Assembly: GCF_902148845.1 (NCBI RefSeq)
Contig: NC_043762.1
Location: 29,090,760-29,154,759, forward strand
Source of the DNA: Salarias fasciatus
Taxonomy: Eukaryota
Reading direction: 5' to 3'
Length of the DNA stretch: 64,000 nt
The notes under the pieces were generated by a model. The model ran no database searches. It was not told the DNA's origin and saw nothing but the letters and a program-made list of their open reading frames with translations. A program made the translations under genes and the position numbers. Positions 57,963 through 58,172 of this stretch are shown here, one piece after another (the first letter of the stretch is position 1; each line of letters opens with the position of its first letter).

Positions 57963-58172
57963 CGAGCTTCACGGTGTGGGAGCGAATCTTCCTCTTGTAT
58001 TTGGTGACAGGATTTATCTGGACCATCTTCTTCAGATCCACGTCGTAGGCCGTCCCCGAGCCGAGCTGCAGAGTGACGGACGTCTCCCCAGAAGACACGG
58101 CTGAGTCCAGCAAGGCGCAGGCGGCGGGCGGATACGCCACCCACTGCTTGCCGTCTCCCATCCACTGCCACT
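57963..58172 (-). CDS. parp2: WWE-domain exon spliced in frame into PARP2 (EWQWMGDGKQWVAYPPAACALLDSAVSSGETSVTLQLGSGTAYDVDLKKMVQINPVTKYKRKIRSHTVKL)
   Basis: WWE consensus features: W-x-W...W..Y...(tandem hydrophobics)...Y.VDL..M.Q.N..T...R.IR. Acceptor cctgtgatcag| on the minus strand; donor CTCG|GTACTT. Phases match the exon 1 donor (...AAAACAG|GTCGGT) and the downstream NTR exon. Confidence 0.6.

Follow-up and report, generated by a model that had tools for sequence, protein, structure and literature searches.

A WWE-encoding exon in parp2 of Salarias fasciatus and the evolutionary direction of the WWE domain in PARP2

A stretch of 64,000 nucleotides from the jewelled blenny, Salarias fasciatus (NCBI RefSeq assembly GCF_902148845.1, contig NC_043762.1, positions 29,090,760 to 29,154,759; hereafter the window) contains on its minus strand parp2, the gene for poly(ADP-ribose) polymerase 2, and the exon of this gene at 57963-58172 was proposed to encode a WWE domain. 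Human PARP2 has no such domain. The locus raises the question of whether this exon truly belongs to the parp2 message, whether its domain was gained by fish or lost elsewhere, and what it may do for the enzyme. We arrived at a joint reading, to which we give a probability of about 0.8: the exon is a constitutive exon 2 of parp2, its WWE domain is ancestral and standard in teleost PARP2, and the domain is, as we infer, a probable reader of ADP-ribose or poly(ADP-ribose) (PAR).

Exon 2 and its place in the parp2 transcript

All exon coordinates of parp2 are given on the minus strand. Exon 2 (57963-58172) is 210 nt long and symmetric, entering and leaving in phase 1, and it encodes the whole WWE domain within protein residues 25-94. 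The translation of 57963-58170 is WQWMGDGKQWVAYPPAACALLDSAVSSGETSVTLQLGSGTAYDVDLKKMVQINPVTKYKRKIRSHTVKL, in agreement with the peptide given in the initial annotation of the window, and its leading Glu comes from a split codon made of the G of exon 1 and the AG of exon 2. The stretch upstream of 58172 reads ...GTGATCAG; the acceptor is ...CTGTGATCAG/AGTGG at 58172 and the donor CTCG/GTACTT after 57963, with slashes marking the junctions. A Pfam profile search matched the exon 2 peptide to PF02825 (WWE) at 61.2 bits (E=1.3e-16) over profile positions 3-66 of 67, where the curated gathering cut-off is 21.1 bits, and this match is far beyond chance. In the full-length protein the same family scores 56.2 bits (E=4.5e-15).

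The gene model was constructed by tblastn with the protein of a cDNA from another fish (L001, described below) as guide, together with a search for GT/GC-AG junctions. A total of 17 exons were obtained, with the coding sequence running from 58868 to 53730 and a product of 653 aa whose sequence matches the RefSeq entry 'poly [ADP-ribose] polymerase 2 [Salarias fasciatus]' (P0019) at 100% identity. The product contains a WWE domain at residues 26-88, WGR (PF05406) at 188-266, the regulatory domain PARP_reg (PF02877) at 301-431 and the PARP catalytic domain (PF00644) at 445-646. Its match to solved structures is strongest for human PARP2 (763 bits), followed by PARP1 (464) and PARP3 (197), and in the alignment with human PARP2 the motifs LLWHGSR, GKGIYFAD and YNEFIVY are identical or have aligned counterparts, with the catalytic His-Tyr-Glu triad present. 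The His, Tyr and Glu of the triad lie within these three motifs. The H-Y-E motif of the PARP catalytic domain has been described (PMC1266365). The gene is the orthologue of PARP2, closer to it than to PARP1 or PARP3.

Most of what the initial annotation had said about the gene itself therefore stands: the exon encodes WWE, its phases are compatible, it lies in frame within PARP2, and the exons downstream of it are those of PARP2. The coordinates of exon 2 were also correct. Those of its neighbours were not, as the coding part of exon 1 spans 58796-58868 instead of 58804-58867 and the charged exon starts at 57844 instead of 57848.

A correct frame on the genome could still be an artefact if the WWE exon were part of a separate upstream transcript, or were mostly skipped, so that the protein would be mammal-like. 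Skipping of exon 2 preserves the frame, since phase 1 meets phase 1, and the transcripts that include the exon come from other fish. Against this, L001 (Logan contig SRR11928275_349, 2593 nt, from run SRR11928275) reads exons 1, 2, 3 and onward continuously. In one frame it runs from MRRARSTRNK through the WWE, a charged linker, WGR and the catalytic domain to ...FNYSSLW, and because it is free of introns it represents a spliced transcript. Beyond L001, complete proteins of 623-654 aa with all four domains can be read from more than 20 Logan contigs of 2-4 kb, which we take as cDNA because 16 introns over more than 5 kb would not fit in contigs of this size. In these contigs from other fish the WWE is spliced to PARP2. 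Both public Salarias protein models retain the WWE; it is exons 3 and 5 that are missing from the Ensembl-derived one (P0020). The start codon is located in exon 1, just 623 nt upstream of exon 2, with no gene in between, and the ligand residues of the WWE are invariant across teleosts, which argues that the domain is translated and under selection. On the grounds of the continuous cDNA-length contigs, the two public models and the nearby start codon we reject a separate upstream transcript, and we consider an artefact of either kind highly improbable.

One in-frame TAA was observed in L001, between ...AECKA and LGKAH, where the window and other fish have Lys at the same codon. An error of assembly or of sequencing could explain it, as could a nonsense allele.

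Distribution and direction of evolution

The best 120 database matches to the full protein come from teleosts of many orders, including salmonids (Coregonus), Polymixia, beryciforms, gobies, killifish, medaka, cichlids and flatfish, and 120/120 of them possess PF02825, PF05406, PF02877 and PF00644. The single-WWE teleost form was also found in the eel Conger, the characiform Prochilodus and the catfish Clarias. The initial annotation had left it to a comparison with other PARP2 proteins whether the domain is local to this genome, and among these matches it is lineage-wide.

A wider search was performed with residues 1-276 against 1.84 billion cluster representatives, and many proteins with a WWE followed by a WGR domain were retrieved. 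They were scored with our own hidden Markov models (HMMs) built from teleost proteins, ten of them were checked with Pfam, and their names were looked up. Of the proteins with a tandem architecture, WWE-WWE-WGR-REG-CAT, those of platypus, frog, electric ray, oyster, sponge, centipede, nematode, flatworm and a euglenid were confirmed by Pfam, and those of coelacanth, more frogs and turtles were assigned by our own HMMs and name look-up. The mammalian representative is the platypus protein XP_028933514; the reptiles are the turtles Chelydra and Chrysemys, and the amphibians the frogs Leptobrachium, Engystomops and Ascaphus. Lobe-finned and cartilaginous fish are represented by the coelacanth (XP_064416490) and the electric ray Narcine, and invertebrates by the Pacific oyster, the snail Bulinus, the flatworm Macrostomum, the nematodes Syphacia and Auanema, the centipede Strigamia and the sponge Ephydatia. 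Outside animals, the euglenid protein with tandem WWE domains also has a PARP zinc finger. A profile of frog, platypus and ray tandem WWEs, aimed at named non-teleost vertebrates, gave no match at E<=1e-5, and the only model found from a bichir relative, Erpetoichthys (P0153), is truncated at its N-terminus. Full-length human PARP2 (PDB 6x0l chain P) aligns to fish residues 120-649 only, with no counterpart of residues 1-119; the initial annotation was right in stating that the human protein is devoid of WWE.

A eukaryotic PARP among the JGI metagenome proteins (P0157 and P0307, 1573-1588 aa) was observed to repeat the WWE-WGR pair about four times ahead of one regulatory and catalytic unit, which is an unusual multi-reader architecture.

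The initial annotation had described the WWE as acquired, possibly by local exon capture. A gain in the fish lineage, or in this genome alone, by exon shuffling into an ancestrally WWE-less PARP2 would be in keeping with a single symmetric phase 1-1 exon that encodes a whole domain, the classic shape of a shuffled exon, and with the lack of WWE in human PARP2. However, WWE-PARP2 is found in sponge, molluscs, flatworm, nematodes, centipede, electric ray, coelacanth, frogs, turtles and platypus, and most of the non-teleost forms have two WWEs at the same position ahead of WGR. Perina et al. (2014) reported a distribution that agrees with this (PMC4245714). If exon shuffling did bring in the domain, it would have happened before animals arose and not within fish. 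We therefore reject local exon capture and regard a gain within fish as having very little chance of being correct; the polarity first proposed has to be reversed. With the WWE present in all 120 best teleost matches and in tandem forms from sponge to platypus, the domain is ancestral in animal PARP2 and was not gained by fish.

The window protein, and all teleosts seen, have one WWE and not the ancestral two. On the sequences compared, the simplest reading is an ancestral tandem WWE that was reduced to one copy on the teleost stem and to none on the lineage to human after the platypus split. A search with tblastn for a decayed further WWE exon in intron 1 or upstream (57-64 kb), with four ancestral first-WWE sequences as queries, matched exon 2 only. 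Which of the two copies was kept by teleosts is ambiguous when the teleost WWE is scored pairwise against each ancestral copy. When first and second WWEs of seven vertebrates were aligned, three columns were seen to separate the two classes, namely the Val before W-Q-W, the Gln of W-Q-W and the phosphate-binding Tyr, and the teleost WWE has the second-WWE state at 3/3 of them. The first ancestral WWE is without the phosphate-binding Tyr. The teleost domain is most likely the second, ligand-competent ancestral copy, although this evidence of three columns is weak. Because the first WWE is without this Tyr, teleosts seem to retain the copy that is competent for ligand.

Ligand pocket and proposed function

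For the exon peptide AlphaFold2 gave a model of moderate quality (mean predicted local distance difference test 70.8), with weak C-terminal strands. The predicted order of elements, strand-strand-helix-strand-strand...strand-strand, would fit a half beta-barrel of about six strands and one helix. In a Foldseek search against PDB the top 20/20 matches are WWE domains, 17 of them at probability 0.93-1.00, with moderate template modeling (TM) scores of about 0.5-0.63. The best fold matches are HUWE1 with ADP-ribose, then TRIP12 and RNF146, and the closest solved WWEs by sequence are DTX1, HUWE1 and TRIP12.

In solved WWE structures an aromatic residue stacks on the adenine, Trp in most and Tyr107 in RNF146, a Gln forms a hydrogen bond with the adenine, and contacts to the proximal phosphate are made by a Tyr and an Arg (PMC11269756). 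W28, Q76, Y67 and R85 of the blenny protein align to the ligand-contact residues of HUWE1, TRIP12 and DTX1. Conservation of these positions among the 120 teleost proteins is almost complete, with W28 in 118/120 (the other two are gaps) and Y67, Q76 and R85 each in 120/120.

The initial annotation had implied binding of iso-ADP-ribose. A strict iso-ADP-ribose reader of the RNF146 type is suggested by the WWE fold, with RNF146 among the structural matches, and by the Gln, Tyr and Arg contacts that the two domains have in common. However, the position of RNF146 Tyr107, whose hydroxyl contacts the distal ribose, is occupied by Trp28, and HUWE1 (Trp1619) and TRIP12 likewise have Trp. The loop that in RNF146 is basic (Arg110, Trp114) and surrounds the distal phosphate carries an invariant Asp31 aligned to HUWE1 Asp1622. 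Trp35 is retained at the position of RNF146 Trp114. By sequence RNF146 is matched only weakly (E=0.17), against E=4.6e-6 for HUWE1. With the Tyr107 and Arg110 features absent and the sequence match weak, RNF146-like specificity was rejected as too specific, and we regard it as unlikely. The residues point to a pocket of HUWE1/TRIP12 type. Because Trp replaces RNF146 Tyr107 and the loop is acidic, general binding of ADP-ribose or PAR is more likely than strict recognition of iso-ADP-ribose.

In the mechanism that we propose, Trp28 would stack on adenine and Gln76 would hydrogen-bond to it, with Tyr67 and Arg85 binding the proximal phosphate. The WWE would probably bind ADP-ribose units of PAR at DNA lesions, made mainly by PARP1 or by PARP2 itself, and such binding would aid the recruitment, retention or activation of PARP2 at the lesion. 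The WGR domain would meanwhile sense the DNA break.

WWE domains were originally proposed as protein-interaction modules. The fold could accordingly be real and conserved with a main job other than PAR reading, such as intramolecular docking on the WGR, helical or catalytic domains, or a protein-protein site. Such a role would be in line with that first proposal and with the first WWE of the ancestral tandem, whose lack of the phosphate-binding Tyr indicates that not every PARP2 WWE need bind ligand, and PAR reading by the PARP2 WWE is itself deduced from conserved residues. On the other side, all four ADP-ribose-contact residues are invariant in the aligned teleosts, and the same residues contact ligand in the HUWE1, TRIP12, DTX1 and RNF146 structures. 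Since exactly this pocket is conserved, ligand binding would be the simplest explanation. We consider a main job outside PAR reading rather unlikely, though less so than RNF146-type specificity.

Several points weigh against our joint reading of exon 2 as a constitutive exon for an ancestral PAR reader. Support for inclusion of the WWE consists of the RefSeq Salarias model and transcripts of other fish, and an in-frame isoform skipping exon 2 would be possible given the symmetric phase 1-1. To these are added the moderate quality of the fold model and of its TM scores, the ambiguous pairwise scores and the three-column basis of the copy assignment. Ligand binding, recruitment and activation are all predicted from conserved residues, and no experiments on binding or recruitment by the PARP2 WWE of fish, frog or other animals were found in the literature searched.

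The disordered basic N-terminal region of human PARP2 binds PAR (Chen et al. 2018, PMC6089979). It is required for PARP1-dependent recruitment, for activation or activity, and for branching (PMC6089979). Fish residues from 120 on align to this N-terminal region, from chain residue 50 on. A further, tentative proposal, to which we give slightly less than an even chance, is that the teleost WWE is a folded PAR reader descended from the second WWE, so that PARP2 would act as a 'second-wave' polymerase recruited and activated by PARP1-made PAR, and that placental mammals such as human shifted this job to the disordered basic N-terminus. If this is true, PARP2 of fish, frog or platypus would be a structurally tractable model of PAR-dependent PARP2 activation, and the mammalian change a natural experiment in which a reader domain was swapped for a disordered region.

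The rest of the locus and comparison with known systems

The coding part of exon 1 (58796-58868) starts with the ATG at 58868, encodes the short basic N-terminal peptide MRRTRASNKKSQSAAESEDVRLKT plus the first base of the next codon, and has the donor G/GTCGGT after 58796. Exon 3 (57674-57844) encodes an acidic/basic linker containing PAPKKRRG, the counterpart of the mammalian N-terminal region in the gene model; its KKRR may serve in nuclear localisation. Exon 4 (57439-57512), located by tblastn and splice-site search, covers residues about 152-176 ahead of WGR. Based upon the gene model and Pfam, WGR starts in exon 5 (57014-57064), continues through exons 6 (56819-56915) and 7 (56671-56746), and ends in exon 8 (56494-56596). 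The PARP regulatory helical domain, on the same evidence, starts in exon 9 (56259-56412), extends over exons 10 (56041-56179) and 11 (55901-55964), and ends in exon 12 (55689-55823), where the catalytic domain starts.

The catalytic domain occupies the remaining exons. Exon 13 (55483-55610) is followed by an intron whose donor is AG/GCGAGC (55477-55482), with GC in place of GT. As the model using this GC donor reproduces the RefSeq protein exactly, the GC-AG intron appears genuine. Exon 14 (55290-55389) contains LLWHGSR with the catalytic His, and exon 15 (54271-54369) contains GKGIYFADMSSKSANYCFAS with the catalytic Tyr, both placed by the gene model, Pfam and the alignment to human PARP2. 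Exon 16 (53978-54102) was placed by the gene model and Pfam. Exon 17 (53730-53892), with alignment as additional evidence, contains YNEFIVY with the catalytic Glu and ends in ...RIQFNYSSSLW, stop codon included.

Elsewhere in the window, open reading frames (ORFs) on the minus strand at about 16-31 kb have matches to WD40 (16919-17308), DUF4062 (28179-28541) and TROVE (30367-30762), of which the TROVE and WD40 matches are slightly below Pfam's own cut-offs. From these domains the ORFs look like a gene for TEP1 (telomerase-associated protein 1), which adjoins PARP2 in human, and this neighbourhood would then be kept in the blenny. Two ORF fragments on the plus strand match reverse transcriptases, one to RVT_1 (20713-21081, E=2.3e-16) and one weakly to an endonuclease-reverse-transcriptase (25809-26228), and are probably remnants of a retroelement of the long interspersed nuclear element type in introns of the TEP1-like gene. 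A weak match to Rsm22, a mitochondrial small-subunit methyltransferase, at 62390-62614 (+) points to a METTL17-like gene that lies upstream of parp2 and runs on the other strand; an ORF is also present at 61116-61427 (+).

The plus-strand ORFs at 44551-45162 and 46706-47140 begin with MGARASR... and display the motifs CPFC...HLLSC and CSICLEDL...CLCVYHK. Pfam gave no match on the two fragments, which look like exons of a ZNRF-type RING ubiquitin ligase. A long ORF at 6084-6845 (-) consists almost wholly of Glu/Asp-rich repeats and could be a coding exon for an acidic low-complexity stretch or else an artefact of simple repeats. In mammals the RNase P RNA gene shares the bidirectional PARP2/RPPH1 promoter. 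An Rfam scan of the whole 64 kb found no family at threshold, and thus no RNase P RNA gene head-to-head with parp2 (58869-59100).

The architecture of the blenny protein is already known. RefSeq and UniProt list it for well over 100 species of fish, and one or more WWE domains at the N-terminus of PARP2 outside mammals were reported in 2014 (Perina et al. 2014, DNA Repair, PMC4245714). The feature is real and ordinary, that of the standard annotated fish PARP2. We noticed that PMC4245714 (sections 3.1.1 and 4) is inconsistent in one respect, as 'bird' is listed among the animals with WWE-PARP2 and PARP2 is said to be lost in all sequenced birds.

Several known systems can be compared with this protein. 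The mono-ADP-ribosyltransferases PARP7, 11, 12, 13 and 14 combine, as the blenny protein does, a WWE and a PARP catalytic domain in one polypeptide. They belong to a different PARP clade, though, without WGR or helical domain and with the WWE directly before the catalytic domain, and their WWEs are more distant from that of the blenny; the PARP13 and PARP14 WWE structures rank 18-20 in the fold search with E >0.2, and PARP7/11/12/13/14 are absent from the sequence matches. RNF146 (PDB 3v3l), whose WWE is the reference reader of iso-ADP-ribose, shares the fold and the contacts by Gln, Tyr and Arg with the blenny domain and differs in the two pocket positions described above, its Tyr107 being Trp and its Arg110 Asp in the blenny. 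The WWEs of HUWE1 and TRIP12 (PDB 6miw, 6pfl, 8rd7, 9bkr) are the closest by fold and among the closest by sequence, with the Trp/Gln/Tyr/Arg contacts and the acidic first-loop residue in common with the blenny domain. They sit in HECT E3 ligases and direct ubiquitylation of PARylated targets, whereas the blenny WWE is fused to the enzyme that synthesises PAR.

The closest systems are the PARP2 proteins themselves. PARP2 of non-mammalian metazoans has the same order as in the blenny, with N-terminal WWE, charged linker, WGR, helical regulatory and catalytic domains, and differs in copy number: teleosts have one WWE, and sponge, molluscs, electric ray, coelacanth, frogs, turtles and platypus have two. 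Human PARP2 is the orthologue, with identical His/Tyr/Glu motifs and a basic linker that also contains a KKRR-like stretch, but it has no WWE and binds PAR through a disordered basic region in place of a folded reader. The initial annotation put forward a coupling of a PAR reader to a PAR writer in positive feedback; experiments on human PARP2 have already demonstrated it, with the N-terminal region in the role of the reader (PMC6089979). The value of the locus lies in the corrected direction: with the WWE ancestral and lost toward human after the platypus split, mammalian PARP2 is the unusual form, and non-mammalian PARP2 could be a cleaner system for PAR-dependent recruitment and activation.

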